In this document: positions 10,601 to 64,000 of the stretch, one piece after another | Layout: every line of letters begins with the position of its first letter | How positions within the stretch are numbered: the stretch's first letter is position 1 | Origin: Giardia intestinalis | Lineage: Eukaryota | Length of the DNA stretch: 64,000 nucleotides | Direction: 5' to 3' (one strand) | Assembly: GCA_000002435.2 (NCBI GenBank) | Contig: CM018791.1 | Translations under genes and position numbers: made by a program | The notes under the pieces: model-generated | Database searches by the model: none | Seen by the model: only the letters and a program-made list of their open reading frames with translations | Told to the model about the DNA's origin: nothing

Positions 10601-13600
10601 TCCTGGCATGCTGTTCCCCGGTCACGAGGTGCGTCGATGGGCCAACCTGTCCTGGCATGCTGTTTCCCCGGTCAACGAGGTGCGTCGATGGGCCAGCTGG
10701 CCCGGAGTCCATTTCCCGGTCAACGAGGTGCGTCGATGGGCCCTGTCCTGGCAGTGTTCCCCGGTCAACGAGGTGCGTCGATGGGCCAGCTGGCCGGAGT
10801 CTTTTCCCGGTCAACGAGGTGCGTCGATGGGCCAACCTGTCCTGGCATGCTGTTTCCCCGGTCAACGAGGTGCGTCGATGGGCCAACCTGTCCTGGCATG
10901 CTGTTTCCCCGGTCAACGAGGTATTCGATGGGCCTGCTGGCCGGAGTCCATTTCCCCGGTCAACGAGGATGCGTCGATGGGCCATAGCTGGCCCGGAGTC
11001 CTTTCCCCGGTCAACGAGGTGCGTCGATGGGCCTAGCTGGCCCGGAGTCCTTTCCCCGGTCAACGAGGTGCGTCGATGGGCCAACCTGTCCTGGCATGCT
11101 GTTTCCCCGGTCAACGAGGTGCGTCGATGGGCCAACCTGTCCTGGCATGCTGTTTCCCCGGTCAACGAGGTGCGTCGATGGGCCAACCTGTCCTGGCATG
11201 CTGTTTCCCCGGTCAACGAGGTATGCTCGATGGGCCTAGTGGCCCGGAGTCCATTTCCCCGGTCAACGAGGTGCGTCGATGGGCCAACCTGTCCTGGCAT
11301 GCTGTTTCCCCGGTCAACGAGGTTGCTCGATGGGCCAACCTGTCCTGGCATGCTGTTTCCCCGGTCAACGAGGTGCGTCGATGGGCCAACCTGTCCTGGC
11401 ATGCTGTTCCCGGTCAACGAGGTGCGTCGATGGGCCAACCTGTCCTGGCATGCTGTTTCCCCGGTCAACGAGGCTATGTCGATGGGCCAACCTGTCCTGG
11501 CATGCTGTTTCCCCGGTCAACGAGGTGCGTCGATGGGCCAACCTGTCCTGGCATGCTGTTTCCCCGGTCAACGAGGTCGTCGATGGGCCAACCTGTCCTG
11601 GCATGCTGTTTCCCCGTCAACGAGGTTGTCGATGGGCCTAGCTGGCCCGGAGTCCCATTTCCCGGTCAACGAGGTTATGTCGATGGCCTAGCTGGCCGGA
11701 GTCCCATTTCCGGTCAACNNNNNNNNNNNNNNNNNNNNNNNNNNNNNNNNNNNNNNNNNNNNNNNNNNNNNNNNNNNNNNNNNNNNNNNNNNNNNNNNNN
11801 NNNNNNNNNNNNNNNNNNNNNNNNNNNNNNNNNNNNNNNNNNNNNNNNNNNNNNNNNNNNNNNNNNNNNNNNNNNNNNNNNNNNNNNNNNNNNNNNNNNN
11901 NNNNNNNNNNNNNNNNNNNNNNNNNNNNNNNNNNNNNNNNNNNNNNNNNNNNNNNNNNNNNNNNNNNNNNNNNNNNNNNNNNNNNNNNNNNNNNNNNNNN
12001 NNNNNNNNNNNNNNNNNNNNNNNNNNNNNNNNNNNNNNNNNNNNNNNNNNNNNNNNNNNNNNNNNNNNNNNNNNNNNNNNNNNNNNNNNNNNNNNNNNNN
12101 NNNNNNNNNNNNNNNNNNNNNNNNNNNNNNNNNNNNNNNNNNNNNNNNNNNNNNNNNNNNNNNNNNNNNNNNNNNNNNNNNNNNNNNNNNNNNNNNNNNN
12201 NNNNNNNNNNNNNNNNNNNNNNNNNNNNNNNNNNNNNNNNNNNNNNNNNNNNNNNNNNNNNNNNNNNNNNNNNNNNNNNNNNNNNNNNNNNNNNNNNNNN
12301 NNNNNNNNNNNNNNNNNNNNNNNNNNNNNNNNNNNNNNNNNNNNNNNNNNNNNNNNNNNNNNNNNNNNNNNNNNNNNNNNNNNNNNNNNNNNNNNNNNNN
12401 NNNNNNNNNNNNNNNNNNNNNNNNNNNNNNNNNNNNNNNNNNNNNNNNNNNNNNNNNNNNNNNNNNNNNNNNNNNNNNNNNNNNNNNNNNNNNNNNNNNN
12501 NNNNNNNNNNNNNNNNNNNNNNNNNNNNNNNNNNNNNNNNNNNNNNNNNNNNNNNNNNNNNNNNNNNNNNNNNNNNNNNNNNNNNNNNNNNNNNNNNNNN
12601 NNNNNNNNNNNNNNNNNNNNNNNNNNNNNNNNNNNNNNNNNNNNNNNNNNNNNNNNNNNNNNNNNNNNNNNNNNNNNNNNNNNNNNNNNNNNNNNNNNNN
12701 NNNNNNNNNNNNNNNNNNNNNNNNNNNNNNNNNNNNNNNNNNNNNNNNNNNNNNNNNNNNNNNNNNNNNNNNNNNNNNNNNNNNNNNNNNNNNNNNNNNN
12801 NNNNNNNNNNNNNNNNNNNNNNNNNNNNNNNNNNNNNNNNNNNNNNNNNNNNNNNNNNNNNNNNNNNNNNNNNNNNNNNNNNNNNNNNNNNNNNNNNNNN
12901 NNNNNNNNNNNNNNNNNNNNNNNNNNNNNNNNNNNNNNNNNNNNNNNNNNNNNNNNNNNNNNNNNNNNNNNNNNNNNNNNNNNNNNNNNNNNNNNNNNNN
13001 NNNNNNNNNNNNNNNNNNNNNNNNNNNNNNNNNNNNNNNNNNNNNNNNNNNNNNNNNNNNNNNNNNNNNNNNNNNNNNNNNNNNNNNNNNNNNNNNNNNN
13101 NNNNNNNNNNNNNNNNNNNNNNNNNNNNNNNNNNNNNNNNNNNNNNNNNNNNNNNNNNNNNNNNNNNNNNNNNNNNNNNNNNNNNNNNNNNNNNNNNNNN
13201 NNNNNNNNNNNNNNNNNNNNNNNNNNNNNNNNNNNNNNNNNNNNNNNNNNNNNNNNNNNNNNNNNNNNNNNNNNNNNNNNNNNNNNNNNNNNNNNNNNNN
13301 NNNNNNNNNNNNNNNNNNNNNNNNNNNNNNNNNNNNNNNNNNNNNNNNNNNNNNNNNNNNNNNNNNNNNNNNNNNNNNNNNNNNNNNNNNNNNNNNNNNN
13401 NNNNNNNNNNNNNNNNNNNNNNNNNNNNNNNNNNNNNNNNNNNNNNNNNNNNNNNNNNNNNNNNNNNNNNNNNNNNNNNNNNNNNNNNNNNNNNNNNNNN
13501 NNNNNNNNNNNNNNNNNNNNNNNNNNNNNNNNNNNNNNNNNNNNNNNNNNNNNNNNNNNNNNNNNNNNNNNNNNNNNNNNNNNNNNNNNNNNNNNNNNNN

Positions 13601-16600
13601 NNNNNNNNNNNNNNNNNNNNNNNNNNNNNNNNNNNNNNNNNNNNNNNNNNNNNNNNNNNNNNNNNNNNNNNNNNNNNNNNNNNNNNNNNNNNNNNNNNNN
13701 NNNNNNNNNNNNNNNNNNNNNNNNNNNNNNNNNNNNNNNNNNNNNNNNNNNNNNNNNNNNNNNNNNNNNNNNNNNNNNNNNNNNNNNNNNNNNNNNNNNN
13801 NNNNNNNNNNNNNNNNNNNNNNNNNNNNNNNNNNNNNNNNNNNNNNNNNNNNNNNNNNNNNNNNNNNNNNNNNNNNNNNNNNNNNNNNNNNNNNNNNNNN
13901 NNNNNNNNNNNNNNNNNNNNNNNNNNNNNNNNNNNNNNNNNNNNNNNNNNNNNNNNNNNNNNNNNNNNNNNNNNNNNNNNNNNNNNNNNNNNNNNNNNNN
14001 NNNNNNNNNNNNNNNNNNNNNNNNNNNNNNNNNNNNNNNNNNNNNNNNNNNNNNNNNNNNNNNNNNNNNNNNNNNNNNNNNNNNNNNNNNNNNNNNNNNN
14101 NNNNNNNNNNNNNNNNNNNNNNNNNNNNNNNNNNNNNNNNNNNNNNNNNNNNNNNNNNNNNNNNNNNNNNNNNNNNNNNNNNNNNNNNNNNNNNNNNNNN
14201 NNNNNNNNNNNNNNNNNNNNNNNNNNNNNNNNNNNNNNNNNNNNNNNNNNNNNNNNNNNNNNNNNNNNNNNNNNNNNNNNNNNNNNNNNNNNNNNNNNNN
14301 NNNNNNNNNNNNNNNNNNNNNNNNNNNNNNNNNNNNNNNNNNNNNNNNNNNNNNNNNNNNNNNNNNNNNNNNNNNNNNNNNNNNNNNNNNNNNNNNNNNN
14401 NNNNNNNNNNNNNNNNNNNNNNNNNNNNNNNNNNNNNNNNNNNNNNNNNNNNNNNNNNNNNNNNNNNNNNNNNNNNNNNNNNNNNNNNNNNNNNNNNNNN
14501 NNNNNNNNNNNNNNNNNNNNNNNNNNNNNNNNNNNNNNNNNNNNNNNNNNNNNNNNNNNNNNNNNNNNNNNNNNNNNNNNNNNNNNNNNNNNNNNNNNNN
14601 NNNNNNNNNNNNNNNNNNNNNNNNNNNNNNNNNNNNNNNNNNNNNNNNNNNNNNNNNNNNNNNNNNNNNNNNNNNNNNNNNNNNNNNNNNNNNNNNNNNN
14701 NNNNNNNNNNNNNNNNNNNNNNNNNNNNNNNNNNNNNNNNNNNNNNNNNNNNNNNNNNNNNNNNNNNNNNNNNNNNNNNNNNNNNNNNNNNNNNNNNNNN
14801 NNNNNNNNNNNNNNNNNNNNNNNNNNNNNNNNNNNNNNNNNNNNNNNNNNNNNNNNNNNNNNNNNNNNNNNNNNNNNNNNNNNNNNNNNNNNNNNNNNNN
14901 NNNNNNNNNNNNNNNNNNNNNNNNNNNNNNNNNNNNNNNNNNNNNNNNNNNNNNNNNNNNNNNNNNNNNNNNNNNNNNNNNNNNNNNNNNNNNNNNNNNN
15001 NNNNNNNNNNNNNNNNNNNNNNNNNNNNNNNNNNNNNNNNNNNNNNNNNNNNNNNNNNNNNNNNNNNNNNNNNNNNNNNNNNNNNNNNNNNNNNNNNNNN
15101 NNNNNNNNNNNNNNNNNNNNNNNNNNNNNNNNNNNNNNNNNNNNNNNNNNNNNNNNNNNNNNNNNNNNNNNNNNNNNNNNNNNNNNNNNNNNNNNNNNNN
15201 NNNNNNNNNNNNNNNNNNNNNNNNNNNNNNNNNNNNNNNNNNNNNNNNNNNNNNNNNNNNNNNNNNNNNNNNNNNNNNNNNNNNNNNNNNNNNNNNNNNN
15301 NNNNNNNNNNNNNNNNNNNNNNNNNNNNNNNNNNNNNNNNNNNNNNNNNNNNNNNNNNNNNNNNNNNNNNNNNNNNNNNNNNNNNNNNNNNNNNNNNNNN
15401 NNNNNNNNNNNNNNNNNNNNNNNNNNNNNNNNNNNNNNNNNNNNNNNNNNNNNNNNNNNNNNNNNNNNNNNNNNNNNNNNNNNNNNNNNNNNNNNNNNNN
15501 NNNNNNNNNNNNNNNNNNNNNNNNNNNNNNNNNNNNNNNNNNNNNNNNNNNNNNNNNNNNNNNNNNNNNNNNNNNNNNNNNNNNNNNNNNNNNNNNNNNN
15601 NNNNNNNNNNNNNNNNNNNNNNNNNNNNNNNNNNNNNNNNNNNNNNNNNNNNNNNNNNNNNNNNNNNNNNNNNNNNNNNNNNNNNNNNNNNNNNNNNNNN
15701 NNNNNNNNNNNNNNNNNNNNNNNNNNNNNNNNNNNNNNNNNNNNNNNNNNNNNNNNNNNNNNNNNNNNNNNNNNNNNNNNNNNNNNNNNNNNNNNNNNNN
15801 NNNNNNNNNNNNNNNNNNNNNNNNNNNNNNNNNNNNNNNNNNNNNNNNNNNNNNNNNNNNNNNNNNNNNNNNNNNNNNNNNNNNNNNNNNNNNNNNNNNN
15901 NNNNNNNNNNNNNNNNNNNNNNNNNNNNNNNNNNNNNNNNNNNNNNNNNNNNNNNNNNNNNNNNNNNNNNNNNNNNNNNNNNNNNNNNNNNNNNNNNNNN
16001 NNNNNNNNNNNNNNNNNNNNNNNNNNNNNNNNNNNNNNNNNNNNNNNNNNNNNNNNNNNNNNNNNNNNNNNNNNNNNNNNNNNNNNNNNNNNNNNNNNNN
16101 NNNNNNNNNNNNNNNNNNNNNNNNNNNNNNNNNNNNNNNNNNNNNNNNNNNNNNNNNNNNNNNNNNNNNNNNNNNNNNNNNNNNNNNNNNNNNNNNNNNN
16201 NNNNNNNNNNNNNNNNNNNNNNNNNNNNNNNNNNNNNNNNNNNNNNNNNNNNNNNNNNNNNNNNNNNNNNNNNNNNNNNNNNNNNNNNNNNNNNNNNNNN
16301 NNNNNNNNNNNNNNNNNNNNNNNNNNNNNNNNNNNNNNNNNNNNNNNNNNNNNNNNNNNNNNNNNNNNNNNNNNNNNNNNNNNNNNNNNNNNNNNNNNNN
16401 NNNNNNNNNNNNNNNNNNNNNNNNNNNNNNNNNNNNNNNNNNNNNNNNNNNNNNNNNNNNNNNNNNNNNNNNNNNNNNNNNNNNNNNNNNNNNNNNNNNN
16501 NNNNNNNNNNNNNNNNNNNNNNNNNNNNNNNNNNNNNNNNNNNNNNNNNNNNNNNNNNNNNNNNNNNNNNNNNNNNNNNNNNNNNNNNNNNNNNNNNNNN

Positions 16601-19600
16601 NNNNNNNNNNNNNNNNNNNNNNNNNNNNNNNNNNNNNNNNNNNNNNNNNNNNNNNNNNNNNNNNNNNNNNNNNNNNNNNNNNNNNNNNNNNNNNNNNNNN
16701 NNNNNNNNNNNNNNNNNNNNNNNNNNNNNNNNNNNNNNNNNNNNNNNNNNNNNNNNNNNNNNNNNNNNNNNNNNNNNNNNNNNNNNNNNNNNNNNNNNNN
16801 NNNNNNNNNNNNNNNNNNNNNNNNNNNNNNNNNNNNNNNNNNNNNNNNNNNNNNNNNNNNNNNNNNNNNNNNNNNNNNNNNNNNNNNNNNNNNNNNNNNN
16901 NNNNNNNNNNNNNNNNNNNNNNNNNNNNNNNNNNNNNNNNNNNNNNNNNNNNNNNNNNNNNNNNNNNNNNNNNNNNNNNNNNNNNNNNNNNNNNNNNNNN
17001 NNNNNNNNNNNNNNNNNNNNNNNNNNNNNNNNNNNNNNNNNNNNNNNNNNNNNNNNNNNNNNNNNNNNNNNNNNNNNNNNNNNNNNNNNNNNNNNNNNNN
17101 NNNNNNNNNNNNNNNNNNNNNNNNNNNNNNNNNNNNNNNNNNNNNNNNNNNNNNNNNNNNNNNNNNNNNNNNNNNNNNNNNNNNNNNNNNNNNNNNNNNN
17201 NNNNNNNNNNNNNNNNNNNNNNNNNNNNNNNNNNNNNNNNNNNNNNNNNNNNNNNNNNNNNNNNNNNNNNNNNNNNNNNNNNNNNNNNNNNNNNNNNNNN
17301 NNNNNNNNNNNNNNNNNNNNNNNNNNNNNNNNNNNNNNNNNNNNNNNNNNNNNNNNNNNNNNNNNNNNNNNNNNNNNNNNNNNNNNNNNNNNNNNNNNNN
17401 NNNNNNNNNNNNNNNNNNNNNNNNNNNNNNNNNNNNNNNNNNNNNNNNNNNNNNNNNNNNNNNNNNNNNNNNNNNNNNNNNNNNNNNNNNNNNNNNNNNN
17501 NNNNNNNNNNNNNNNNNNNNNNNNNNNNNNNNNNNNNNNNNNNNNNNNNNNNNNNNNNNNNNNNNNNNNNNNNNNNNNNNNNNNNNNNNNNNNNNNNNNN
17601 NNNNNNNNNNNNNNNNNNNNNNNNNNNNNNNNNNNNNNNNNNNNNNNNNNNNNNNNNNNNNNNNNNNNNNNNNNNNNNNNNNNNNNNNNNNNNNNNNNNN
17701 NNNNNNNNNNNNNNNNNNNNNNNNNNNNNNNNNNNNNNNNNNNNNNNNNNNNNNNNNNNNNNNNNNNNNNNNNNNNNNNNNNNNNNNNNNNNNNNNNNNN
17801 NNNNNNNNNNNNNNNNNNNNNNNNNNNNNNNNNNNNNNNNNNNNNNNNNNNNNNNNNNNNNNNNNNNNNNNNNNNNNNNNNNNNNNNNNNNNNNNNNNNN
17901 NNNNNNNNNNNNNNNNNNNNNNNNNNNNNNNNNNNNNNNNNNNNNNNNNNNNNNNNNNNNNNNNNNNNNNNNNNNNNNNNNNNNNNNNNNNNNNNNNNNN
18001 NNNNNNNNNNNNNNNNNNNNNNNNNNNNNNNNNNNNNNNNNNNNNNNNNNNNNNNNNNNNNNNNNNNNNNNNNNNNNNNNNNNNNNNNNNNNNNNNNNNN
18101 NNNNNNNNNNNNNNNNNNNNNNNNNNNNNNNNNNNNNNNNNNNNNNNNNNNNNNNNNNNNNNNNNNNNNNNNNNNNNNNNNNNNNNNNNNNNNNNNNNNN
18201 NNNNNNNNNNNNNNNNNNNNNNNNNNNNNNNNNNNNNNNNNNNNNNNNNNNNNNNNNNNNNNNNNNNNNNNNNNNNNNNNNNNNNNNNNNNNNNNNNNNN
18301 NNNNNNNNNNNNNNNNNNNNNNNNNNNNNNNNNNNNNNNNNNNNNNNNNNNNNNNNNNNNNNNNNNNNNNNNNNNNNNNNNNNNNNNNNNNNNNNNNNNN
18401 NNNNNNNNNNNNNNNNNNNNNNNNNNNNNNNNNNNNNNNNNNNNNNNNNNNNNNNNNNNNNNNNNNNNNNNNNNNNNNNNNNNNNNNNNNNNNNNNNNNN
18501 NNNNNNNNNNNNNNNNNNNNNNNNNNNNNNNNNNNNNNNNNNNNNNNNNNNNNNNNNNNNNNNNNNNNNNNNNNNNNNNNNNNNNNNNNNNNNNNNNNNN
18601 NNNNNNNNNNNNNNNNNNNNNNNNNNNNNNNNNNNNNNNNNNNNNNNNNNNNNNNNNNNNNNNNNNNNNNNNNNNNNNNNNNNNNNNNNNNNNNNNNNNN
18701 NNNNNNNNNNNNNNNNNNNNNNNNNNNNNNNNNNNNNNNNNNNNNNNNNNNNNNNNNNNNNNNNNNNNNNNNNNNNNNNNNNNNNNNNNNNNNNNNNNNN
18801 NNNNNNNNNNNNNNNNNNNNNNNNNNNNNNNNNNNNNNNNNNNNNNNNNNNNNNNNNNNNNNNNNNNNNNNNNNNNNNNNNNNNNNNNNNNNNNNNNNNN
18901 NNNNNNNNNNNNNNNNNNNNNNNNNNNNNNNNNNNNNNNNNNNNNNNNNNNNNNNNNNNNNNNNNNNNNNNNNNNNNNNNNNNNNNNNNNNNNNNNNNNN
19001 NNNNNNNNNNNNNNNNNNNNNNNNNNNNNNNNNNNNNNNNNNNNNNNNNNNNNNNNNNNNNNNNNNNNNNNNNNNNNNNNNNNNNNNNNNNNNNNNNNNN
19101 NNNNNNNNNNNNNNNNNNNNNNNNNNNNNNNNNNNNNNNNNNNNNNNNNNNNNNNNNNNNNNNNNNNNNNNNNNNNNNNNNNNNNNNNNNNNNNNNNNNN
19201 NNNNNNNNNNNNNNNNNNNNNNNNNNNNNNNNNNNNNNNNNNNNNNNNNNNNNNNNNNNNNNNNNNNNNNNNNNNNNNNNNNNNNNNNNNNNNNNNNNNN
19301 NNNNNNNNNNNNNNNNNNNNNNNNNNNNNNNNNNNNNNNNNNNNNNNNNNNNNNNNNNNNNNNNNNNNNNNNNNNNNNNNNNNNNNNNNNNNNNNNNNNN
19401 NNNNNNNNNNNNNNNNNNNNNNNNNNNNNNNNNNNNNNNNNNNNNNNNNNNNNNNNNNNNNNNNNNNNNNNNNNNNNNNNNNNNNNNNNNNNNNNNNNNN
19501 NNNNNNNNNNNNNNNNNNNNNNNNNNNNNNNNNNNNNNNNNNNNNNNNNNNNNNNNNNNNNNNNNNNNNNNNNNNNNNNNNNNNNNNNNNNNNNNNNNNN

Positions 19601-22600
19601 NNNNNNNNNNNNNNNNNNNNNNNNNNNNNNNNNNNNNNNNNNNNNNNNNNNNNNNNNNNNNNNNNNNNNNNNNNNNNNNNNNNNNNNNNNNNNNNNNNNN
19701 NNNNNNNNNNNNNNNNNNNNNNNNNNNNNNNNNNNNNNNNNNNNNNNNNNNNNNNNNNNNNNNNNNNNNNNNNNNNNNNNNNNNNNNNNNNNNNNNNNNN
19801 NNNNNNNNNNNNNNNNNNNNNNNNNNNNNNNNNNNNNNNNNNNNNNNNNNNNNNNNNNNNNNNNNNNNNNNNNNNNNNNNNNNNNNNNNNNNNNNNNNNN
19901 NNNNNNNNNNNNNNNNNNNNNNNNNNNNNNNNNNNNNNNNNNNNNNNNNNNNNNNNNNNNNNNNNNNNNNNNNNNNNNNNNNNNNNNNNNNNNNNNNNNN
20001 NNNNNNNNNNNNNNNNNNNNNNNNNNNNNNNNNNNNNNNNNNNNNNNNNNNNNNNNNNNNNNNNNNNNNNNNNNNNNNNNNNNNNNNNNNNNNNNNNNNN
20101 NNNNNNNNNNNNNNNNNNNNNNNNNNNNNNNNNNNNNNNNNNNNNNNNNNNNNNNNNNNNNNNNNNNNNNNNNNNNNNNNNNNNNNNNNNNNNNNNNNNN
20201 NNNNNNNNNNNNNNNNNNNNNNNNNNNNNNNNNNNNNNNNNNNNNNNNNNNNNNNNNNNNNNNNNNNNNNNNNNNNNNNNNNNNNNNNNNNNNNNNNNNN
20301 NNNNNNNNNNNNNNNNNNNNNNNNNNNNNNNNNNNNNNNNNNNNNNNNNNNNNNNNNNNNNNNNNNNNNNNNNNNNNNNNNNNNNNNNNNNNNNNNNNNN
20401 NNNNNNNNNNNNNNNNNNNNNNNNNNNNNNNNNNNNNNNNNNNNNNNNNNNNNNNNNNNNNNNNNNNNNNNNNNNNNNNNNNNNNNNNNNNNNNNNNNNN
20501 NNNNNNNNNNNNNNNNNNNNNNNNNNNNNNNNNNNNNNNNNNNNNNNNNNNNNNNNNNNNNNNNNNNNNNNNNNNNNNNNNNNNNNNNNNNNNNNNNNNN
20601 NNNNNNNNNNNNNNNNNNNNNNNNNNNNNNNNNNNNNNNNNNNNNNNNNNNNNNNNNNNNNNNNNNNNNNNNNNNNNNNNNNNNNNNNNNNNNNNNNNNN
20701 NNNNNNNNNNNNNNNNNNNNNNNNNNNNNNNNNNNNNNNNNNNNNNNNNNNNNNNNNNNNNNNNNNNNNNNNNNNNNNNNNNNNNNNNNNNNNNNNNNNN
20801 NNNNNNNNNNNNNNNNNNNNNNNNNNNNNNNNNNNNNNNNNNNNNNNNNNNNNNNNNNNNNNNNNNNNNNNNNNNNNNNNNNNNNNNNNNNNNNNNNNNN
20901 NNNNNNNNNNNNNNNNNNNNNNNNNNNNNNNNNNNNNNNNNNNNNNNNNNNNNNNNNNNNNNNNNNNNNNNNNNNNNNNNNNNNNNNNNNNNNNNNNNNN
21001 NNNNNNNNNNNNNNNNNNNNNNNNNNNNNNNNNNNNNNNNNNNNNNNNNNNNNNNNNNNNNNNNNGTTTCCCGGTCAACGAGGTATGTCGATGGGCCTAG
21101 GCTGGCCCGGAGTCCCATTTCCCCCGGTCAACGAGGTATGTCGATGGGCCTAGCTGGCCCGGAGTTCCTGTTTCCCCGGTCAACGAGGTGCGTCGATGGG
21201 CCAACCTGTCCTGGCATGCTGTTTCCCCGGTCAACGAGGTGCGTCGATGGGCCAACCTGTCCTGGCATGCTGTTTCCCCGGTCAACGAGGTGCGTCGATG
21301 GGCCAACCTGTCCTGGCATGCCTGTTTTCCCCGGTCAACGGGTGGTCGATGGGCAACTTCCTGGCTCTTTTCCCCGGTCACGAGGTGTCGATGGGCCTAG
21401 CTGGCCGGGTCCCATTTCCCCGGTCAACGAGGTGCGTCGATGGGCCAACCTGTCCTGGCATGCCTGTTTCCCGGTCAACGAGGTGCGTCGATGGGCCAAC
21501 CTGTCCGGCATGTCCGTTTCCCCCGGTCAACGAGGTGCGTCGATGGGCCAACCTGTCCTGGCATGCGTTTCCCCGGTCAACGAGGTGCGTCGATGGGCCA
21601 ACCTGTCCTGGCATGCTGTTTCCCCGGTCAACGAGGTATGTCGATGGGCCTAGCTGGCCCGGAGTCCCATTTCCCCGGTCAACGAGGTGCGTCGATGGGC
21701 CAACCTGTCCCGGCATGCCTTTCCCCGGTCAACGAGGTGCGTCGATGGGCCAGCTGGCCCGGATCCTTTTCCCCGGTCAACGAGGTGCGTCGATGGGCCA
21801 ACCTGTCCTGGCATGCTGTTTCCCCCGGTCAACGAGGTGCGTCGATGGGCCAACCTGTCCTGGCAGCTGTTTCCCCGGTCAACGAGGTGCGTCGATGGGC
21901 CAACCTGTCCTGGCATGCTGTTTCCCCGGTCAACGAGGTATGTCGATGGGCCAGCTGCCCGGATCCCATTTCCCCGGTCAACGAGGTGCGTCGATGGGCC
22001 AACCTGTCCTGGCATGCTGTTTCCCCGGTCAACGAGGGTGATGGCCCCCCCGAGGTGCGTCGATGGGCCAACCTGTCCTGGCATGCTGTTTCCCCGGTCA
22101 ACGAGGTATGTCGATGGCCAACCTGTCCTGGCATGCTGTTTCCCCGGTCAACGAGGTGCGTCGATGGGCCAACCTGTCCTGGCATGCTGTTTCCCCGGTC
22201 AACGAGGTATGTCGATGGGCCAACCTGTCCTGGCATGCTGTTTCCCCGGTCAACGAGGTAGTCGATGGGCCACTGCCGGATCCTTCCCCGGTCAACGAGG
22301 TATGTCGATGGGCCTAGCTGGCCCGGAGTCCCATTTCCCCGGTCAACGAGGTGCGTTCGAGGGCCGTCGATGGGCCAACCTGTCCTGGCATGCTGTTTCC
22401 CCGGTCAACGAGGTGCGTCGATGGGCCAACCTGTCCTGGCATGCTGTTTCCCCGGTCAACGAGGTGCGTCGATGGGCCAACCTGTCCTGGCATGCTGTTT
22501 CCCCGGTCAACGAGGTATGTCGATGGGCCTAGCTGGCCCGGAGTCCCATTTCCCCGGTCAACGAGGTATGTCGATGGGCCTAGCTGGCCCGGAGTCCCAT

Positions 22601-23106
22601 TTCCCCGGTCAACGAGGTGCGTCGATGGGCCAACCTGTCCTGGCATGCTGTTTCCCCGGTCAACGAGGTGCGTCGATGGGCCAACCTGTCCTGGCATGCT
22701 GTTTCCCCGGTCAACGAGGTGCGTCGATGGGCCAACCTGTCCTGGCATGCTGTTTCCCCGGTCAACGAGGTGCGTCGATGGGCCAACCTGTCCTGGCATG
22801 CTGTTTCCCCGGTCAACGAGGTATGTCGATGGGCCAACCTGTCCTGGCATGCTGTTTCCCCGGTCAACGAGGTGCGTCGATGGGCCAACCTGTCCTGGCA
22901 TGCTGTTTCCCCGGTCAACGAGGTGCGTCGATGGGCCAACCTGTCCTGGCATGCTGTTTCCCCGGTCAACGAGGTGCGTCGATGGGCCAACCTGTCCTGG
23001 CATGCTGTTTCCCCGGTCAACGAGGTGCGTCGATGGGCCAACCTGTCCTGGCATGCTGTTTCCCCGGTCAACGAGGTGCGTCGATGGGCCAACCTGTCCT
23101 GGCATG
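7690..23106. repeat. 51-bp tandem satellite array, ~79 resolved units on the left + ~40 on the right of an assembly gap; consensus ccaacctgtcctggcatgctgtttccccggtcaacgaggtgcgtcgatggg
   Basis: Period measured directly: 'cgaggt' recurs at 7741, 7792, 7843 (51 bp). Two unit variants alternate: A (...ccaacctgtcctggcatgctgttt...gaggtgcgtcg) and B (...cctagctggcccggagtcccattt...gaggtatgtcg). The edges (7707-8800, 22350-23106) are near-perfect. The interior (8900-11718, 21066-22300) carries many 1-2 bp indels. Right edge at 23106 (ggcatg|atatct). Confidence 0.95.
11719..21065. other. assembly gap (9,347 N) inside the satellite array
   Basis: Uninterrupted run of n from 11719 to 21065, with the same 51-bp repeat on both flanks. 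The true array length is therefore unknown. Confidence 0.98.
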
Positions 23107-25631
23107 ATATCTATCTGAGACTTATCATTACTATACTTAGGTGGCATATTATATGTTCCTTTAACTAGATAATGATTCAGATTAGAAACATTTTGGGCTC
23201 CAATGTCATAATAGCTAGATTGCTGATTCTTTTGATGACTCACTGAATTTTGCATCAAGGAGCAATTGACACCCTTATCAACAAGCACTTGATTAATTTC
23301 GCAAGTAGAACCATTGTGAATAAATGCACCATCGTTTAAATCTCCGCTTAGATTTGTAGACGGATCAGCTAATGATTTAACACTCAAATGCTCCTCTTTC
23401 CATGCTACATGGCTTGATTGCTGGCTTAGGACTTCCGCCTCCCTCTGCGATTCGTACTGCATACTGGGATCTTTGGCTTGTAAAACACTTCTGTTGCTAA
23501 GGTAATTAAGCTCAGGTGTGTAACCACTTAATTGGCGTGTGTTTTCATTTGGCAAAGTATCATACAATGTGCTATCTTTAACAGAGAAAAGAGAGCTGTT
23601 ATCTCCCCTATACCCTTGCTGGTTAGATACGCTTAGCTCCCGAGCGCCGGAGATACTTATGGTATTGTAAGGTGTATTGTCTTCATGAGATAGCTCCTTC
23701 ACAGTCTCGTTTTCTCCCGGTTCTGGGTTAACAAGTGTGCTATAGCTCAAACCCCGTGCATGAGACGCCGTGATGGTAACATCATAAGGTGCTGATGGTG
23801 AAACCTGTGAACGCACGGGAAGATTTGGATCCCAACAATAGCTATGATCATACGGTGATACTGCTGTTAGAGGGGTGTTTATTTCTGACGTACTAATGTC
23901 GGACCTATCTGGCTTCTGCATCAATGTATTCTTATACTCCGTTGTATTATAAGTTGCTCTCTTCGTTTGTCGTGTGTAATCAGTCATATCATGGATTGTC
24001 TCAGCCTTGTCGTCTGGGCGCGCAGGGAATGTGTCTCCTGGCTTTCCGTATGCATAGCTCAGTACGCGGGCGCTTTTTACTAAAATCGGCCCGTCATTTC
24101 TATAAGGCGTGAGCCCCATATCGCTTCCAACTAGATTAGTTTCCATATCAGAAAAGATATCCTTCTGTGTTTTCTCTTTGTAGTCTTTTACGAGTTTATT
24201 CTCGTCTAACAATTCTTCTCTTGTTTGTGCTACCTTCTCCAGTTTATCTTTCCAATAGTTAGCCCATGATATGTCGTCAGAAATAGTGACGGGCAGTGTT
24301 CCTGAAGTAGTACTGAGAACATTCTGTGTGTCTCCAGCCACAATTGCTGTGGGCATTGTAGCCAGCAGTGTTGCATTAGGTGTAAGTGCTATCTTCTTAG
24401 TGTCTTCAGATAACTGTACTTGGTGATCAATTGCGGTTGATTTCCCCGGTTCTATTGAATTACTTACATTCCTAAATAATGTCTGTAAATTGCTTGTTGC
24501 AGCGGCACTATATCCATAGTTCTCTGGGCAGGTATTACTGTAATCGTTAGATTTGAATGTCTGCTGCTGAGACTTTGTCGCTACTAATTGATCTTGTGGA
24601 GCAGGTTTCGAAGAAGCTAAGTTGCCATATTGAGATTGGTGTAATGGGACAGTGATAAGGGGGTCTTGCTGAGATTTCGTCCAGTATGCCGGTGCTTTGG
24701 AAACCTGGCTTCGTAGGCTTTCAAACGCGGAGGGGAGCTGAGGAGGAGGCACGATGGGGCCGTGCTCCTTCAAATAGTCACGGTACACAGACCATGCTTT
24801 ATGTATTCGTGGATGCTTGAGTAACTCATCTGCAGGAGGACGACTCCTGGGGTTATGATCGAGAAGCAGATTAATTATTCTGGTTAGCTCTGCACTGTAG
24901 CCGTGATATGATGTCTTTACAAAGGAACTGAGAGATTGTATGGCTTCCTGCTTGTTGGCACATGTCTCTCTGTACCGGCGAAGCGTGCACATTTCGTGTA
25001 GTACACATCCTAACATGAACATGTCGACCTTCGCCCCATACTTATGCCCCAAGAGCATTTCAGGCGCCATGTAAACATAATCGCCAACCTGTTCAGAGAT
25101 CTCAGACGCCTGACTCAAAGAGACTGCTTGACGCATACCGCCTAAAACACACGCTGTGTTGTTAGACAAGAATATGGTTTCTGGACGTATGTTTCGATGA
25201 ATTACTATTCCGACTTCGGGACAATTCAATTTATAAGGTGAATGTAGGTAGGCAAGCACATCGCAGAGCTGGGCAAGAACCATCCAAATAGTGCTTTCGT
25301 CATAGAGATGCGCAGCCTCAAATCTGTCAACGATTTGCTGCCGTAAGCTCTGGCTTAAATATGCATCCATGAAGACATAGTACGTGTGGCGGAACTGGTC
25401 GTGGAAAACATTATGAATCTGAAGAATTCCTGGGTGCTGAAGTCTCTGTGTTAGTTGATACTGTCGATCTACATGCTCTCGAAGAGTAGTTGCAGATTGA
25501 GTGTAGTCTATAACTTTGCAGACAACGTCGTGTGAGGTCCACGTATCGTGCGCCCAATGAATCCTAGAATGCTGCCCATGGGTAAGAAGAGGCCCAAGGC
25601 GGTACCTATCCATCAGGAGAGTCGTGAGCAT
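22314..25631 (-). CDS. NEK-like protein kinase (probably inactive: HRN for HRD, no DFG), long S/T/N-rich linker, C-terminus reading ~15.5 units into the 51-bp satellite; true 3' end uncertain
   Basis: ATG verified at 25631..25629. N-terminal kinase fold (MDRYRLGPLL...VVCKVID...HRNIRPETIFL...YMAPEML...DMFMLGCVLHEMC). The unique sequence ...KYSNDKSQIDI joins MPGQVGPSTHLVDRGNS repeats at 23106 with no stop. The first stop is at 22314, caused by a repeat variant. Confidence 0.6.
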   Translation of the reverse strand: MLTTLLMDRYRLGPLLTHGQHSRIHWAHDTWTSHDVVCKVIDYTQSATTLREHVDRQYQLTQRLQHPGILQIHNVFHDQFRHTYYVFMDAYLSQSLRQQIVDRFEAAHLYDESTIWMVLAQLCDVLAYLHSPYKLNCPEVGIVIHRNIRPETIFLSNNTACVLGGMRQAVSLSQASEISEQVGDYVYMAPEMLLGHKYGAKVDMFMLGCVLHEMCTLRRYRETCANKQEAIQSLSSFVKTSYHGYSAELTRIINLLLDHNPRSRPPADELLKHPRIHKAWSVYRDYLKEHGPIVPPPQLPSAFESLRSQVSKAPAYWTKSQQDPLITVPLHQSQYGNLASSKPAPQDQLVATKSQQQTFKSNDYSNTCPENYGYSAAATSNLQTLFRNVSNSIEPGKSTAIDHQVQLSEDTKKIALTPNATLLATMPTAIVAGDTQNVLSTTSGTLPVTISDDISWANYWKDKLEKVAQTREELLDENKLVKDYKEKTQKDIFSDMETNLVGSDMGLTPYRNDGPILVKSARVLSYAYGKPGDTFPARPDDKAETIHDMTDYTRQTKRATYNTTEYKNTLMQKPDRSDISTSEINTPLTAVSPYDHSYCWDPNLPVRSQVSPSAPYDVTITASHARGLSYSTLVNPEPGENETVKELSHEDNTPYNTISISGARELSVSNQQGYRGDNSSLFSVKDSTLYDTLPNENTRQLSGYTPELNYLSNRSVLQAKDPSMQYESQREAEVLSQQSSHVAWKEEHLSVKSLADPSTNLSGDLNDGAFIHNGSTCEINQVLVDKGVNCSLMQNSVSHQKNQQSSYYDIGAQNVSNLNHYLVKGTYNMPPKYSNDKSQIDIMPGQVGPSTHLVDRGNSMPGQVGPSTHLVDRGNSMPGQVGPSTHLVDRGNSMPGQVGPSTHLVDRGNSMPGQVGPSTHLVDRGNSMPGQVGPSTYLVDRGNSMPGQVGPSTHLVDRGNSMPGQVGPSTHLVDRGNSMPGQVGPSTHLVDRGNSMPGQVGPSTHLVDRGNGTPGQLGPSTYLVDRGNGTPGQLGPSTYLVDRGNSMPGQVGPSTHLVDRGNSMPGQVGPSTHLVDRGNSMPGQVGPSTALERTSLTGEMGLRAS

Positions 25632-33870: not shown

Positions 33871-36540
33871 CTACGAGACATCGCACAGACAGATGCTATT
33901 TTCCGCTATTGGCTCGGCGTATTCCATTACCTCAGACTCTATATATACCGCAAATGGTATTTTCAGGGAGCCTTCATCGATGGGTAAATCGTAGTCTGCG
34001 CCATTAGGTTCTACATCATAGCTTAAGTCCTTAATATAGTACGGAGGCATTGGTAGTGGTTGTTGACAAGTTGATGATAAGTTGTCCAGGGGAGCGGGGG
34101 CAGCAAGGGGCTCCTCCGCGCTCTCCTCGCACTCCGGGGTGGCGGCCCTCTGGTAGCTCTCGTCCTTCGCCGGGTCCAGGGGAGCGGGGGCAGCAAGGGG
34201 CTCCTCCGCGCTCTCCTCGCACTCCGGGGTGGCGGCCCTCTGGTAGCTCTCGTCCTTCGCCGGGTCCAGGGGAGCGGGGGCAGCAAGGGGCTCCTCCGCG
34301 CTCTCCTCGCACTCCGGGGTGGCGGCCCTCTGGTAGCTCTCGTCCTTCGCCGGGTCCAGGGGAGCGGGGGCAGCAAGGGGCTCCTCCGCGCTCTCCTCGC
34401 ACTCCGGGGTGGCGGCCCTCTGGTAGCTCTCGTCCTTCGCCGGGTCCAGGGGAGCGGGGGCAGCAAGGGGCTCCTCCGCGCTCTCCTCGCACTCCGGGGT
34501 GGCGGCCCTCTGGTAGCTATCTTCGCAGTATTTTGCAGCTAAGACAGAAGGCTCATCTCTGACCTGTTCAACTGTAGTAACAGTTTCTATAACCTCATAG
34601 CGGTTATAAATGTATTTATCATCAGTCTTTTCAGAAGGTGTTCCAGCCTGTCCTTCTGCTTCATACAAATCTCCCTCAGTAATAGGCGTTGGTTCCACCT
34701 TTGATGTAGCAGGCATGTGGTATGTGGTGTTTAATACTTGTCCATTCTCATCATAAATGGCTTTATCGCTAGCATTACTGTTCATCAATTCTGCTTCTTC
34801 TTCTCTTGAAATAATCTTTTTAAGAGGCATCGGCAAACTGCTTTCCCTGGTGGTCACTGGCTCTTCCTCACGCGCGAATAGAACAGGCTTTGTATTCGGT
34901 CGAGTATTAGTGGAATATCCAACTATACTCTTAGAAACATAGTTGGGTTCAATAATCGGATGTATGCTCTTGTCTGAATCTCCACAATAAAATTCTGGCA
35001 AGGGCTGGCAATAGGATTTGAAGCATGTCATAGAGCGTTTTTGGGTCATGCTGTCCCGATCATCTACCTGGTACGCTTCCCAGTCATCAGATGTAGGATA
35101 GACAGGCACTATCACCAAAGTTTTTCGTTGCTCGTTGACAAACTTTAAAATAGTGCCAAAGTCCAAAAGAGTGTCTTGCTCTGCTGTTATGGCATCCAAC
35201 AGCTGCTGAGGAGTCAGAAGAGGGACGGGAAGATCAGTAATATTAGTGTAACAGCCCTTTAGAGCATGAAGATGGGCATCCCAGCAGATTGGCAAATCAT
35301 CTCCAGCAAACACGGCATCAGCTTGTAACCCCAAAAGAAAGTAAAGGGATACGTCCTCATCGGACAAAGAGGACGTACGTGCTACACTGCTACATACCAG
35401 GTCACTGTCTAGAGGGCCTTGATCAACTCCATTCCGTGGGTGCTTCTGGTCGTACAGATCAAACAAGTCGCCAGTCTCATCACAGTTTATACATTGATCA
35501 TAGAAGATGTTAACAACTTCTTGTATCTCCGGAAGAGTCATCTCAGGCATAAACTTGAGAATCGCAAACACAAGTGCCGTTGTTTCCCGTGTATAGAAGC
35601 ACTCTTGTTTTAGATACATAAACCACGAATCCTCTGCCTTGTCTGATATTTTGATATTCGGGAGGCAGACAGGCTTGTCACAAAGAAACCTGCACGCGTT
35701 GGCAAGAGATGATAACTGAATGGTCAGCACTTTAAACTTAGTAAGAAGCTCAGTCAAGGCCTTTCTGCTGCCTTTCCCCGAACTCAGAAGAGCAGCCGTC
35801 TCATTCTTACAGATAATCCGCTCTTGAAGTAGCGTCCTAAAGAGTTTGCGGTATTCTAAAAGCGTATGCATCCTCTTTTGATACTCAACCGTGAGCGTAG
35901 AGCTTCTGTTGAGCTGAGAATACGCATAATCACGCTCTGAATAGGGGATTTCAAGAGCCTCCCACATACGAGTGAGTGATGCAACAGCATTGTGCGCCCT
36001 CAGAGCCATGGATGCCCCTTGGCCCGTCCTTGGCAAGAATTGGTTCCCACTTCGGGAGACAAGAGAGGTAGAGCCCCGATCCTTTGTCATGAACTTCTCT
36101 GACTTGTTGAGATTGTCTGTATCGTTATAGTATCGTGTCTGTGGGGAACAAATGCGTTCCAAATAAGGAGAATATTCCACCTGCTGCTCGGTAACAGACG
36201 CTTTTGGACTCCCGTGGCCATGCTTTGTAGATTTACGATAAGATTTGATGTCTGTATTTGGAGACTTTTGTAGTGGGCGGGTAATGGAGCGTGAGCGGAC
36301 ATTTGCCATGGTTGCCCCTTCTAGGTGCTTGCTCTGAATGCGGAGCATCTCTGCTTGCGACACACCTCGCTCCGTAGTCTTGGCCATCTCGACAATCCGG
36401 GCATTGTTCGGATTTGAAAAGAATGCCTTGAGGTGGGGGTCGCTTTCTGCATGGTATGACGGTGGTCTGTCACCAATTCTAGTGGTAAACTCTGGCTGCA
36501 ATCTTTCGCGTCGCGGTGCGCGGTGGTCAACAAAGCTCAT
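33871..36540 (-). CDS. coiled-coil protein, paralog A of the 58227..59714 gene; contains 5 x 30-aa acidic tandem repeats; weak MAP65/Ase1/PRC1-like WxxLxIPxxER motif
   Basis: ATG verified at 36540..36538. Blocks shared with paralog B: MWEALEIPYSERDYA / LWKALDIPPLERNYA, SGKGSRKAL / AGKGSKSVL, YFLLGLQA / NFLLGLQA, LLTPQQLLDAI / LLSPEQILDAV, LVIVPVYP / VVLVPVIP. Confidence 0.6.
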   Translation of the reverse strand: MSFVDHRAPRRERLQPEFTTRIGDRPPSYHAESDPHLKAFFSNPNNARIVEMAKTTERGVSQAEMLRIQSKHLEGATMANVRSRSITRPLQKSPNTDIKSYRKSTKHGHGSPKASVTEQQVEYSPYLERICSPQTRYYNDTDNLNKSEKFMTKDRGSTSLVSRSGNQFLPRTGQGASMALRAHNAVASLTRMWEALEIPYSERDYAYSQLNRSSTLTVEYQKRMHTLLEYRKLFRTLLQERIICKNETAALLSSGKGSRKALTELLTKFKVLTIQLSSLANACRFLCDKPVCLPNIKISDKAEDSWFMYLKQECFYTRETTALVFAILKFMPEMTLPEIQEVVNIFYDQCINCDETGDLFDLYDQKHPRNGVDQGPLDSDLVCSSVARTSSLSDEDVSLYFLLGLQADAVFAGDDLPICWDAHLHALKGCYTNITDLPVPLLTPQQLLDAITAEQDTLLDFGTILKFVNEQRKTLVIVPVYPTSDDWEAYQVDDRDSMTQKRSMTCFKSYCQPLPEFYCGDSDKSIHPIIEPNYVSKSIVGYSTNTRPNTKPVLFAREEEPVTTRESSLPMPLKKIISREEEAELMNSNASDKAIYDENGQVLNTTYHMPATSKVEPTPITEGDLYEAEGQAGTPSEKTDDKYIYNRYEVIETVTTVEQVRDEPSVLAAKYCEDSYQRAATPECEESAEEPLAAPAPLDPAKDESYQRAATPECEESAEEPLAAPAPLDPAKDESYQRAATPECEESAEEPLAAPAPLDPAKDESYQRAATPECEESAEEPLAAPAPLDPAKDESYQRAATPECEESAEEPLAAPAPLDNLSSTCQQPLPMPPYYIKDLSYDVEPNGADYDLPIDEGSLKIPFAVYIESEVMEYAEPIAENSICLCDVS
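34080..34525. repeat. five near-identical 90-bp tandem repeats inside the paralog A CDS, encoding KDESYQRAATPECEESAEEPLAAPAPLDPA
   Basis: 'ggagcggggg' recurs at 34091, 34181, 34271, 34361, 34451 (90-bp period = 30 codons). Diverges at ~34518. The alternative-frame ORFs 34023..34466, 34031..34492 and 34050..34562 are artefacts of it. Confidence 0.9.
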
Positions 36541-38057: not shown

Positions 38058-38108
38058 CAATCGTTCAAATTTACAGGTCGAGTCAAAAGGTGGCAGAGGG
38101 GTGAGCAG

Positions 38109-38588
38109 CTACAGCATACTTCCATGAATGCCGTTCATCCATGGAGGACGCACTATTCTCATGTATATCTGTATATCTTTATCCATGATCGTGACGCGGT
38201 GGGCGTGGTTTGCCAGTATTTGGCAGTCTCCAAGCACCTGGGAAAGCATGGCTTCGGATGCTTCCTGCAATGCGCCGATTGCCTGGGCTTGGAAGCGAAT
38301 TTCGTTTCCTCCTGAGGGAAGTGAACACGTTATGTCACGTACAAGGCGTTGAAAGCAGGCGATGGGGATGACGCTAGTGACTCTGCGCTGCATGTTAGTG
38401 ATCTCTTTGCGAACCTGGGAGCCGGGTCGGGCACGTCTGGTGACGGCCTTTTCAGATTTCGATATAGCCTTGCGTGCGACGGTCTTCTTGGAAAGAATCG
38501 TCTTTCGAGGTGCATGTTGTCCTTTGCGTGCTGTATTGACGTGCACGCTCTTGCTGCGGTCCATAGCTGTGTTTTTGGTGCGAGCCAT
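38109..38588 (-). CDS. divergent histone H3 variant (CenH3- or H3B-like): extended N-tail, loop-1 insertion, C-terminal extension
   Basis: ATG verified at 38588..38586. MARTK start. Histone-fold motifs: PIACFQRLVRDI, RFQAQAIGALQEASEAMLSQVL, ANHAHRVTIMDKDIQIYMRIV. Loop 1 is TCSLPSGGNEIRF against canonical AQDFKTDLRF (+3 aa). Ends ...IVRPPWMNGIHGSML instead of ...IRGERA. Confidence 0.85.
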   Translation of the reverse strand: MARTKNTAMDRSKSVHVNTARKGQHAPRKTILSKKTVARKAISKSEKAVTRRARPGSQVRKEITNMQRRVTSVIPIACFQRLVRDITCSLPSGGNEIRFQAQAIGALQEASEAMLSQVLGDCQILANHAHRVTIMDKDIQIYMRIVRPPWMNGIHGSML

Positions 38589-39078
38589 ATTTTTAAACCT
38601 TGATCATCCTAGGATGGTTAGTGTAACGTCTTGCTGATAGGGTATTCAGTGAAAATGGTGAAAGTAGATAGCAATCTTGCTTGTTCAGAGAAGATTGTGT
38701 TGAACTGTGGCCTAAGTAAGGGATGGACACGCCCTAGGAGGAAAAACAGCAGCTTTGGAAATTCTAAAATACCAAGGGAATCCTTTTCCATCGCAGGGCA
38801 GTAAGATTCTCTTCCTGTCGATCAGCAACGGATACACAAAGAGCGCAGAAGAATGGATTGATAGGAGTCGCCAGATTGTCTTAGCAAGCAGCTTTTGAGA
38901 AGCACTCAATGTAAATCATATGTTCAAAAAAGCAAATTAATTCCGCTTCTGATTTCATATAAATTTCAAGTCCACTGGCCTCTCCTGAGGCAGATGATGA
39001 CTTTGCGACGGGCGGACGGAGGGACGCGTGACGAAGTTTGTCGTATTCTGAATTCCTTCATTTAAAATTGGGCTTAAA

Positions 39079-39651
39079 ATGCATCATCTCCGCTTTTACC
39101 TGCCGCTCCAGCGTGTGGACGGCGGGTTCGCGTTCTTTGCTCCTGGCGGGGTCGGTCCAGTTCCTGCAGAGTTGCAGCATTACCCAACAGTCGTGGTATC
39201 AACGGATCCTTCAAATGAAAACCAACTGATACCCGTTGATAAAAAGGGCGTAAAGCTCACTTCTCAGGGCAAGAAGGAGACGGGCCGACGAAGGCGCTCA
39301 GGAAAGCCAGCTACAGATACCATCGAGCAACCTGTGCCAGCTACCGGCAACAGTGATGCGCACAGCACCATTGATGAATCCGAAGATGAAGTCTACATGG
39401 GAGACAACGCGAAAAGCAACAGAGCCCTTCTCGAAGCCCAGGCAGTCGCTCGTAGGCTGATAACGTTGACTAAAGAGATAGACGGCGGCCTTGTACAAGG
39501 AGAAGAGGCCACTGGACAGCGAAATGATCCAAAGGAGGGTCTTGTCATAACGGAGGCAGGGGCTGTCTATCTACCAAGTACTCAAGCATCGGCAGTAAGG
39601 GCTTGTACTCATACATACGGGCCCATGCTGTCTCGGGTCCTCATGTCTTAG
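39079..39651 (+). CDS. hypothetical basic/acidic low-complexity protein (190 aa)
   Basis: ATG at 39079. Divergent from the H3-variant gene across a 490-bp spacer. No domain recognised. Confidence 0.3.
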   Translation: MHHLRFYLPLQRVDGGFAFFAPGGVGPVPAELQHYPTVVVSTDPSNENQLIPVDKKGVKLTSQGKKETGRRRRSGKPATDTIEQPVPATGNSDAHSTIDESEDEVYMGDNAKSNRALLEAQAVARRLITLTKEIDGGLVQGEEATGQRNDPKEGLVITEAGAVYLPSTQASAVRACTHTYGPMLSRVLMS

Positions 39652-62900: not shown

Positions 62901-64000
62901 ATAACGTGAGCTGGACTGGCGGGCTGAGGACAGAAACCTTTCGAGGAATCGCTAGATAGTAAACCCGGCTCTCTGGCAGTAGCGAATGTCATAGTGACCT
63001 CTGGAACCATAGTGCTCTGAGCTGAATTTGGTCTGGAGAGCTGAGTAGTAGAAGATACTGCTGGTGTTTCAGAGATGTCCATCAAGCTGCTGAGTACTGT
63101 TGTATGGTCCTGGAGTGGTTTATCAAACGACTTGCTTTCTAAATTAATAGTATTAATAGTTGATGGGTCAGCAAGAAAGTTTCGATGATGTGGATTTTCA
63201 ACCACGTGAGAATCAGCTGCAAATGTCAAAATCATCTGAGTTACAGTTACATCTTCGTCTAGTGTACTTTCAGTAGAGCTTCTTGATTGGACAGAAGAGC
63301 TTTCCTTAGAACCTAAAGTAGTAGAGGATAGAACTTGAGGATGCTCACCAGCGTTTTCCTGGGCAATTGATGAATACTGATCTTGAGAATTTTGTTTAGG
63401 CACTTCATTGGAAGAATGCTTGATTAAAAATGAAGACTCGTGAGTTAAGGGCCTAGATAACGAATTTTCTTCTGCCTTATTTTGTGAATGCATAAAGTTC
63501 TCAATCAAAATATCGTAAGAAGTATCTCCATTACCATAAACATCTGTATTTAGCAAAGTATCCTCACACACCGTGTCTTCTGCCAAGGGCTTCTTTTGGT
63601 TTGTTCTCGATGCATCGGTAGGTTTTAATTTCCGTAAAGGTGGAAGGGATGATAAGGAATACGTTAGAACAAGCTCACTAACAGGTACATCTTCATTATC
63701 ACAAGCTGGAGTAAGTACTCCCTCATGTATATCGTTAACTACAAGAAGGTCTTCGACGGGCTCCGCGGGCTCTGCAAGGCGTGCCTCCTCGGGCTCCTCA
63801 ACGGGCGCTTCAGGTTCTTCGACGGGCTCCGCGGGTCTGCAAGGCGTGCCTCCTCGGGCTCCTCAACGGGCGCTTCAGGTTCTTCGACGGGCTCCGCGGG
63901 GTCTGCAAGGCGTGCCTCCTCGGGCTCCTCAACGGGCGCTTCAGGTTCTTCGACGGGCTCCGCGGGCTCTGCAAGGCGTGCCTCCTCGGGCTCCTCAACG
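59912..64000 (-). CDS. very large Ser/Thr/Pro-rich low-complexity protein, partial; N-terminal acidic 22-aa repeats continue beyond the window
   Basis: Track start 63586 is TTG. The frame is stop-free upstream to 63862 with no ATG, and the first in-frame ATG downstream is 63493. The stop at 63865..63863 is created by a 1-bp deletion in copy 2 of a 66-bp repeat. Copy 1 in frame reads AEPAEPVEEPEAPVEEPEEARL. Confidence 0.5.
63745..64000. repeat. 66-bp tandem repeat (>=3.8 copies to window end); unit gacgggctccgcgggctctgcaaggcgtgcctcctcgggctcctcaacgggcgcttcaggttcttc
   Basis: Anchor 'cttcgacggg' at 63751, 63817, 63882, 63948 (periods 66/65/66). Copy 2 lacks one c (gcgggtctgc). Copy 3 has c>g (gcggggtctgc). 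Confidence 0.85.

Follow-up and report, generated by a model that had tools for sequence, protein, structure and literature searches.

Giardia is reported to possess a canonical histone H3, encoded by two gene copies, and two H3 variants, H3B and cenH3, with the three proteins 33–46% identical to one another (PMC8011197). Their listed sizes are 440 (146 aa) for H3 (GL50803_135231), 479 (159 aa) for H3B (GL50803_3367) and 470 (156 aa) for Cen H3 (GL50803_20037) (PMC6429047). The last of these, cenH3, is the gene used experimentally as the Giardia centromeric histone, and primers for it are given in the same study (PMC6429047) and in a second, independent paper. A 15-bp 'him' motif is common to all core histone genes of the organism (PMC1872034). 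We analysed a stretch of 64 000 nucleotides of Giardia intestinalis DNA (the window), in which a sequence-only reading had picked out, at 38109–38588, a divergent H3 variant with hallmarks of a centromeric H3 (CenH3) and had proposed it to be either the CenH3 or the H3B of Giardia. H3B is said to have been named by Dawson, Sagolla and Cande in 2007, who reportedly also localised its product with GFP.

Identity of the ORF at 38109–38588

The ORF runs from ATG to TAG over exactly 38109–38588 on the minus strand, encoding 159 amino acids followed by the TAG stop, and the protein sequence quoted for it earlier was recovered unchanged. Its assignment draws on the ORF list, the Pfam match, the protein identity and a reverse primer. 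The protein is 100% identical to that of G. intestinalis WB (XP_001704171.1, KAE8302709.1 and A8BYH2, the last with the database title 'histone H3', Giardia intestinalis WB clone C6), and the identity to this WB protein is 98% in assemblage E (P15) and 93% in assemblage B. The listed length of H3B fits that of the ORF, and both H3B primers published in Table S1 of PMC6429047 match the window with 0 mismatches: the gene-specific part of Giardia.HistoneH3B-R, CAGCATACTTCCATGAATGCCGTT, lies at 38112–38135 and covers the final eight codons, the stop excluded, and Giardia.HistoneH3B-F lies at 38811–38834, 223 bp upstream of the ATG. In contrast, the cenH3 primers (ATGAGCGGAGGCTCACGG; ...CCGTAGTGAATTTAAGTTGCGCTGC) had no match in the whole window at up to 2–3 mismatches; neither did the canonical H3 primer. 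The cenH3 primers encode a protein that starts MSGGSR and ends QRNLNSLR, unlike the MARTKN and HGSML termini of the ORF, and the exclusion of cenH3 rests on these primer-encoded termini and on length, by which, rather than by a full alignment, cenH3 is known here.

Because the H3B primers match exactly and the cenH3 primers do not, the window ORF is H3B (GL50803_3367), a different gene from cenH3; of the two options offered for it, H3B stands and CenH3 falls. The view that the ORF is the Giardia cenH3/CENP-A orthologue, a centromere mark recruiting the kinetochore, could draw on a loop 1 three residues longer than in human H3, a longer N-terminal tail, an extended C-terminus and a weak, unspecific Pfam cross-match to the CENP-T_C/CENP-S histone fold. 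The primer matches already refute that identity, and the alignment, conservation and expression data described below also speak against it, leaving it a negligible probability. No cenH3 was found among the 120 listed homologues of H3B or the 150 best representatives of a profile search. Met9 was also considered as the start of H3B, as 151-aa database entries exist, and was rejected: MARTK is conserved in the orthologues, and an AT-rich initiator-like sequence abuts Met1.

The gene is therefore already known, annotated and named, and the finding is real but ordinary; it carries little weight as a discovery, with H3B described and the Giardia centromeric histone at another locus. What the assignment averts is a misidentification, because a ChIP experiment that took the ORF for 'CenH3' would fail to map centromeres.

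Histone fold and the features attributed to CenH3

The claim that the histone fold is retained was confirmed in several ways. H3B matched the Pfam Histone family (PF00125) with E = 8.8e-35 and 120 bits (cut-off 26.4), and its top 60 sequence matches in the PDB, with E values down to 4.5e-20, were all H3 chains, variants or chimeras, the best being H3.3 and H3 chains. An AlphaFold2 model built with 32 homologues showed the order αN, α1, L1, α2, L2, α3, with helices at residues 57–68 (αN), 76–88 (α1), 101–128 (α2) and 136–146 (α3), a pLDDT of 77–93 over the fold, a 12-residue loop 1 and a short helical turn within the C-terminal extension. The best Foldseek matches of the model in the PDB were nucleosomal H3 chains, a result that confirms the H3 fold only, because Foldseek cannot tell H3 from CENP-A folds. 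By BLASTP, H3B aligned with human H3.3 over residues 1–145 (84 bits), with Giardia H3 from residue 1 (77 bits, 37% identity) and with human CENP-A over the fold only (residues 61–145, 59 bits); its identity to Giardia H3 and human H3.3 is 37–42%. In the stretches FQRLVR and AIGALQEASEA, H3B is unchanged from human H3.

We compared H3B and its relatives with a canonical Giardia H3 sequence checked against PDB 7D69 chain A (100% over 146 aa) and a human CENP-A sequence checked against PDB 3NQU. Loop 1 of H3B (DITCSLPSGGNEIRFQ, against EIAQD---FKTDLRFQ in human H3.3) does carry the three additional residues that had been claimed, and the C-terminus, described as longer by about 10 residues, is longer than that of human H3 by nine (14 residues against five after '..RI'). 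Canonical Giardia H3, however, itself has a loop 1 two residues longer and a C-terminus seven residues longer (...RIGKRIEPEYRKGK) than human H3, and within the H3B clade the loop ranges in length from 0 to +3, the value of +3 occurring in the G. intestinalis complex only. Because the canonical protein has both features too, on these alignments a longer loop 1 and a C-terminal extension do not discriminate centromeric from bulk H3 in Giardia; for the same reason the usual hallmarks, a longer loop 1 and extended termini, are unusable in this organism.

The N-terminal tail had been called long and unique. It is long, by approximately 12 residues, αN beginning at residue 57 rather than 45, but it is not unique, because BLASTP aligns it with H3 from the first residue, which also argues against a cenH3 identity. 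An 11-residue insertion lies between the K4 and K9-like motifs, and the H3 motifs ARTK (K4), TARK (K9-like), APRK (K18), KK (K23) and ARKA (K27-like) are kept.

Within the fold, Malik and Henikoff reportedly proposed in 2003 that a CenH3 loses Q68, replaces F84 and changes T107 to Ala, Cys or Ser. Measured against these residues, H3B shows one change of the three: Q68 is kept (CFQRLVR), as is F84 (IRFQ), both counting against cenH3, and T107 is replaced by Cys (GDCQIL), which would count in its favour. Canonical Giardia H3 itself lacks Q68, having PFSKLV in place of PFQRLV. The hallmark picture for H3B is therefore mixed and uninformative, and the headline of 'CenH3 hallmarks' does not survive: the features also occur in canonical Giardia H3, the tail resembles that of H3 and is conserved, selection is strongly purifying (dN/dS 0.03), and by microarray the signal is comparable in order of magnitude to that of H3 (see below).

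Relatives, constraint and genomic setting of H3B

H3B is much nearer to H3 proteins of other organisms than to the canonical H3 of its own genome: it scored 103–161 bits against a set of H3 proteins from diplomonads and related organisms, compared with 77 bits against Giardia H3. Its relatives are the G. muris 'histone H3' A0A4Z1SY43, Spironucleus salmonicida H3B (SS50377_17654, V6LE38, with the database title 'histone H3'), S. vortens H3 (A7Y0D9), Hexamita inflata Histone_H3 (A0AA86QW32), and sequences from Dysnectes brevis and several environmental samples. V6LE38 was assigned through a 90% cluster that it shares with a listed homologue, and its 146 aa equal the length listed for S. salmonicida H3B. 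These proteins share with H3B a tail pattern of ARTK, then ARKG.KAPRKT, then ARK; an IP opening α1, D(C/A)Q.LA.HA in α2 and MDKD; and a C-terminal (R/K)PxW motif, of which R147, P148 and W150 are invariant in an alignment of 11 sequences of the clade. They differ in loop 1, which varies from 0 to +3 residues, and in the 'AIG' motif, present in G. intestinalis only. In an exhaustive profile search, the clade formed a handful of 50% clusters amid approximately 17 000 H3-like matches.

Judged from these shared motifs and scores, H3B is a member of a second lineage of H3, one that occurs across diplomonads and in Dysnectes. Several accessions of H3B-type H3 were found in each of S. salmonicida and H. 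inflata, in which the genes are probably multi-copy, a pattern more in keeping with a role in bulk chromatin than with a niche role. We offer tentatively, and with less than even confidence, the broader proposal that the lineage is ancient, with a conserved tail that is H3-like but expanded and Cys or Ala at the T107 position among its defining features, and that diplomonads run two parallel types of bulk nucleosome, with H3B as a functional replacement for, or alternative to, H3, and the RPxW motif directing homotypic nucleosomes or a dedicated chaperone. An ENA metagenome contig encodes a 149-aa H3-like protein that does not start with ARTK, ends in RPTFW and has a far longer loop 1 (DIITDVGTTNTNEMRISS); this protein might represent another divergent variant of H3, from an unsampled diplomonad-like organism.

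Substitution rates were estimated by the Nei–Gojobori method, for which the orthologous loci of assemblages B and E were recovered. The dN/dS ratio of H3B was 0.031 for WB–GS and 0.029 for WB–P15, compared with 0.08–0.11 for the downstream 242-aa gene and 0.13–0.15 for the upstream 438-aa Asn_synthase-like gene; with a ratio of approximately 0.03, H3B is under strong purifying selection. The tails of CenH3 proteins are generally hypervariable, and their evolution is often rapid. Neither was seen in H3B, for which the tail is better conserved against G. muris (35 of 56 residues identical, 62%) than the fold (46 of 90, 51%), and this, together with the low dN/dS, is further evidence against cenH3. 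The same data bear on the suggestion of a paralogue of H3 that is decaying or without function, its odd tail, loop and C-terminus having arisen by drift under relaxed constraint. Its identity of only 37–42% to Giardia H3 and human H3.3 might be read in this way, but comparisons among assemblages A, B and E give a dN/dS of 0.03, the 159-aa ORF is intact in every assemblage, G. muris, Spironucleus, Hexamita and Dysnectes all have orthologues, the promoter is conserved and the transcript level is high. Selection and expression already refute decay, and we give it practically no credence.

The Asn_synthase-like gene adjoins H3B in all three assemblages, A, B and E. It is also the neighbour of H3B in G. 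muris, and this conservation supports orthology; within the 5 kb inspected on either side, no other neighbour is shared with G. muris. On the G. muris contig CM016925.1, two H3B copies encoding the same protein are found approximately 94 kb apart (2041252–2051737 and 2135658–2146143), and both loci have an identical order and identical coordinates of Asn_synthase-like gene, H3B and RRM protein gene. The gene is single-copy in G. intestinalis. In the intergenic region of the G. intestinalis locus, on the plus strand and thus opposite to H3B, the C/D-box snoRNA GlsR1 (Rfam RF02336, 'GlsR1_miR6') lies at 38970–39054, approximately 380 bp upstream of the H3B start; the match is full length and scores 114 bits (gathering score 100), and its end is 24 bp short of a 190-aa ORF at 39079.

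The remark that H3B lies 15 kb from a satellite was accurate: the nearest 51-bp array has its 3′ end at 23106, 15.0 kb away. The accompanying judgement that this proximity is coincidental is reasonable; G. muris H3B keeps only the Asn_synthase-like neighbour within 5 kb each side, and the nearness of the satellite is without demonstrated relevance. The satellite is a single locus at 7707–23106, split by a run of 9347 Ns (11719–21065) into arrays at 7707–11675 and 21066–23106, with approximately 80 copies at 90% identity on one side and approximately 40 at 81% on the other. The paper on the WB PacBio assembly mentions no more than four internal gaps, each of them 'at long repeats' and with a size taken from an optical map; should the window derive from that assembly, the N-run would be one of these four gaps and the true array would be at least approximately 15 kb. 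A protein kinase ORF at 22314–25631 on the minus strand (Pkinase, E = 1e-29) contains approximately 15 satellite units in frame at its C-terminus, giving a 17-aa repeat (MPGQVGPSTHLVDRGNS); the border of the satellite may be coding sequence, unless the ORF extends artificially into the repeat. Two further repeats were seen in the window: a perfect tandem repeat of 90 bp × 4.8 (100% identity) at 34084–34518, within an 889-aa ORF (33871–36540, minus strand) for which no Pfam match was found, and a repeat of 66 bp × 3.8 at 63750–64000 that runs off the end of the window.

Upstream region, expression and proposed role of H3B

The region upstream of H3B (38589–38834, minus strand), which supplied the native promoter when H3B was tagged in the published work, contains conserved blocks. 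The 210 bp adjoining the ATG are 66.7% identical between WB and GS, and the synonymous sites of the H3B CDS are near saturation (pS 0.57, with only approximately 43% unchanged). Nevertheless, within 38589–38800 on the minus strand the blocks AACAAGCAAGATTGCT, TTACACTAACC, TTTTAGAATTTCC and TTTAAAAAT do not vary among assemblages A, E and B, which, against near-saturated synonymous sites, suggests that they are specific regulatory elements distinct from the him motif of the core histones. The AT-rich, initiator-like TTTAAAAAT (38589–38597, minus strand), invariant like the others, directly abuts the ATG. Such AT-rich initiators adjoining the start codon have been described for Giardia promoters (PMC1872034), and TTTAAAAAT probably acts as the initiator of H3B. 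Neither published form of the him motif (GRGCGCAGATTNGG and GRGCGCATGATTTNGG) had a match at up to three mismatches in 38589–39078, a span that includes the approximately 50 bp upstream of the ATG within which the motif defines him membership. At the 3′ end, TGTAAAT (38069–38075, minus strand), 33 nt downstream of the stop, resembles a polyadenylation signal and would be used as such; the Giardia consensus is AGT[A/G]AA[T/C], with TGTAAAC and TGTGAAC accepted as variants for H2A genes (PMC1872034).

Published microarray signals for GL50803_3367 were 184,230 in trophozoites and 87,271 in cysts, compared with 311,567 and 477,105, respectively, for canonical H3 (PMC3096902), so that the H3B transcript signal in trophozoites is approximately 60% of that of H3. 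By RNA-seq, core histone genes are up-regulated in cysts, and GL50803_3367 is not in that list (PMC8700996). H3B is therefore abundantly transcribed and, given a promoter of its own without the him motif and expression differing from that of the core histones, appears to be regulated separately from them. A signal of the same order as that of H3 is also at odds with a cenH3 identity.

Both H3B and H3B-GFP are listed as nuclear (PMC8011197; PMC6429047). We consider H3B most likely to be an abundant, non-centromeric nucleosomal H3 variant, the term 'non-centromeric' being based on citations at second hand ('found in the nuclei'), on what Dawson et al. reportedly stated in their 2007 abstract and on indirect arguments from sequence and expression. 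Through its complete H3-type fold, H3B would pair with H4 and enter nucleosomes in both nuclei, presumably outside centromeres. The H3-like lysine motifs of its tail (K4, K9-like, K18, K23 and K27-like) could allow it to carry H3-type modifications, and its own conserved promoter, without the him element by which the core histone genes are coordinated, would allow its supply to be controlled apart from that of bulk H3. The conserved RPxW extension follows α3, which in a nucleosome would place it beside the H3–H3′ four-helix bundle at the dyad, and plausibly gives H3B nucleosomes a distinct stability, a homotypic assembly or a specificity for particular partners or chaperones. As a whole, the single-copy H3B gene of WB (assemblage A), acting through this putative mechanism, is in our judgement highly probable as the explanation of the locus.

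A different role, as a second centromere-associated variant or a variant of pericentromeric heterochromatin, enriched at repeats such as the 51-bp satellite, would account for the partial CenH3-like traits of H3B (loop 1 +3 and T107C) and for the retention of the K9-like and K27-like motifs; an ambiguous sentence in a review also groups H3B with CenH3 'in the centromere'. Dawson et al. are said to have suggested in 2007 that H3B might mark non-centromeric heterochromatin, which we also counted in its favour. We nevertheless regard such a role as unlikely. The trophozoite transcript reaches approximately 60% of that of H3; the several H3B-type accessions in S. salmonicida and H. inflata fit a bulk role better; linkage to a satellite is irrelevant for a protein that acts in trans, and the single neighbour shared with G. 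muris within 5 kb is the Asn_synthase-like gene. In addition, a search of a literature library for Giardia centromere ChIP-seq or for genome-wide occupancy of H3B found none, and no loss-of-function data came to light. For H3B as an abundant nucleosomal variant, the interest that is left lies in the role of a lineage conserved in diplomonads and Dysnectes and in its distinctive RPxW C-terminus.

Among the known systems, H3B resembles the H3.3-type replacement histones in being dispersed, single-copy and probably polyadenylated, with a promoter of its own. The signature residues of H3.3 are at positions 31 and 87–90 (AAIG). The AIG of G. intestinalis H3B, at positions equivalent to A87-I89-G90, is a further likeness, but the match is probably due to chance: the region reads AQAIGAL in G. 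intestinalis, STAIQAL in G. muris and ALEAL, ALQAL or ALLAL in other members of the clade. As the clade as a whole does not conserve AIG, an H3.3-like identity based on this motif was set aside. Replication independence has already been described for all the core histone genes of Giardia (PMC1872034).

With cenH3 (GL50803_20037), H3B shares the character of a divergent H3-family protein of approximately 156–159 aa in the same genome, and both are reported to be nuclear (PMC8011197); cenH3 differs in its separate locus, its termini (MSGGSR and QRNLNSLR) and its absence from the window. Canonical Giardia H3 (GL50803_135231 and 14212; 7D69_A) has in common with H3B the H3 fold, the ARTK N-terminus, a loop 1 longer than the human one (+2, compared with +3 in H3B) and a C-terminal extension with R..P.aromatic. 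It differs in being 62% identical to human H3.3 and only 37% to H3B, and its genes have the him promoter motif (PMC1872034), which H3B lacks. The 11 residues inserted after the K4 motif and ahead of the K9-like one, the Cys at the position of T107 and the RPxW tail are features of H3B and not of canonical Giardia H3.
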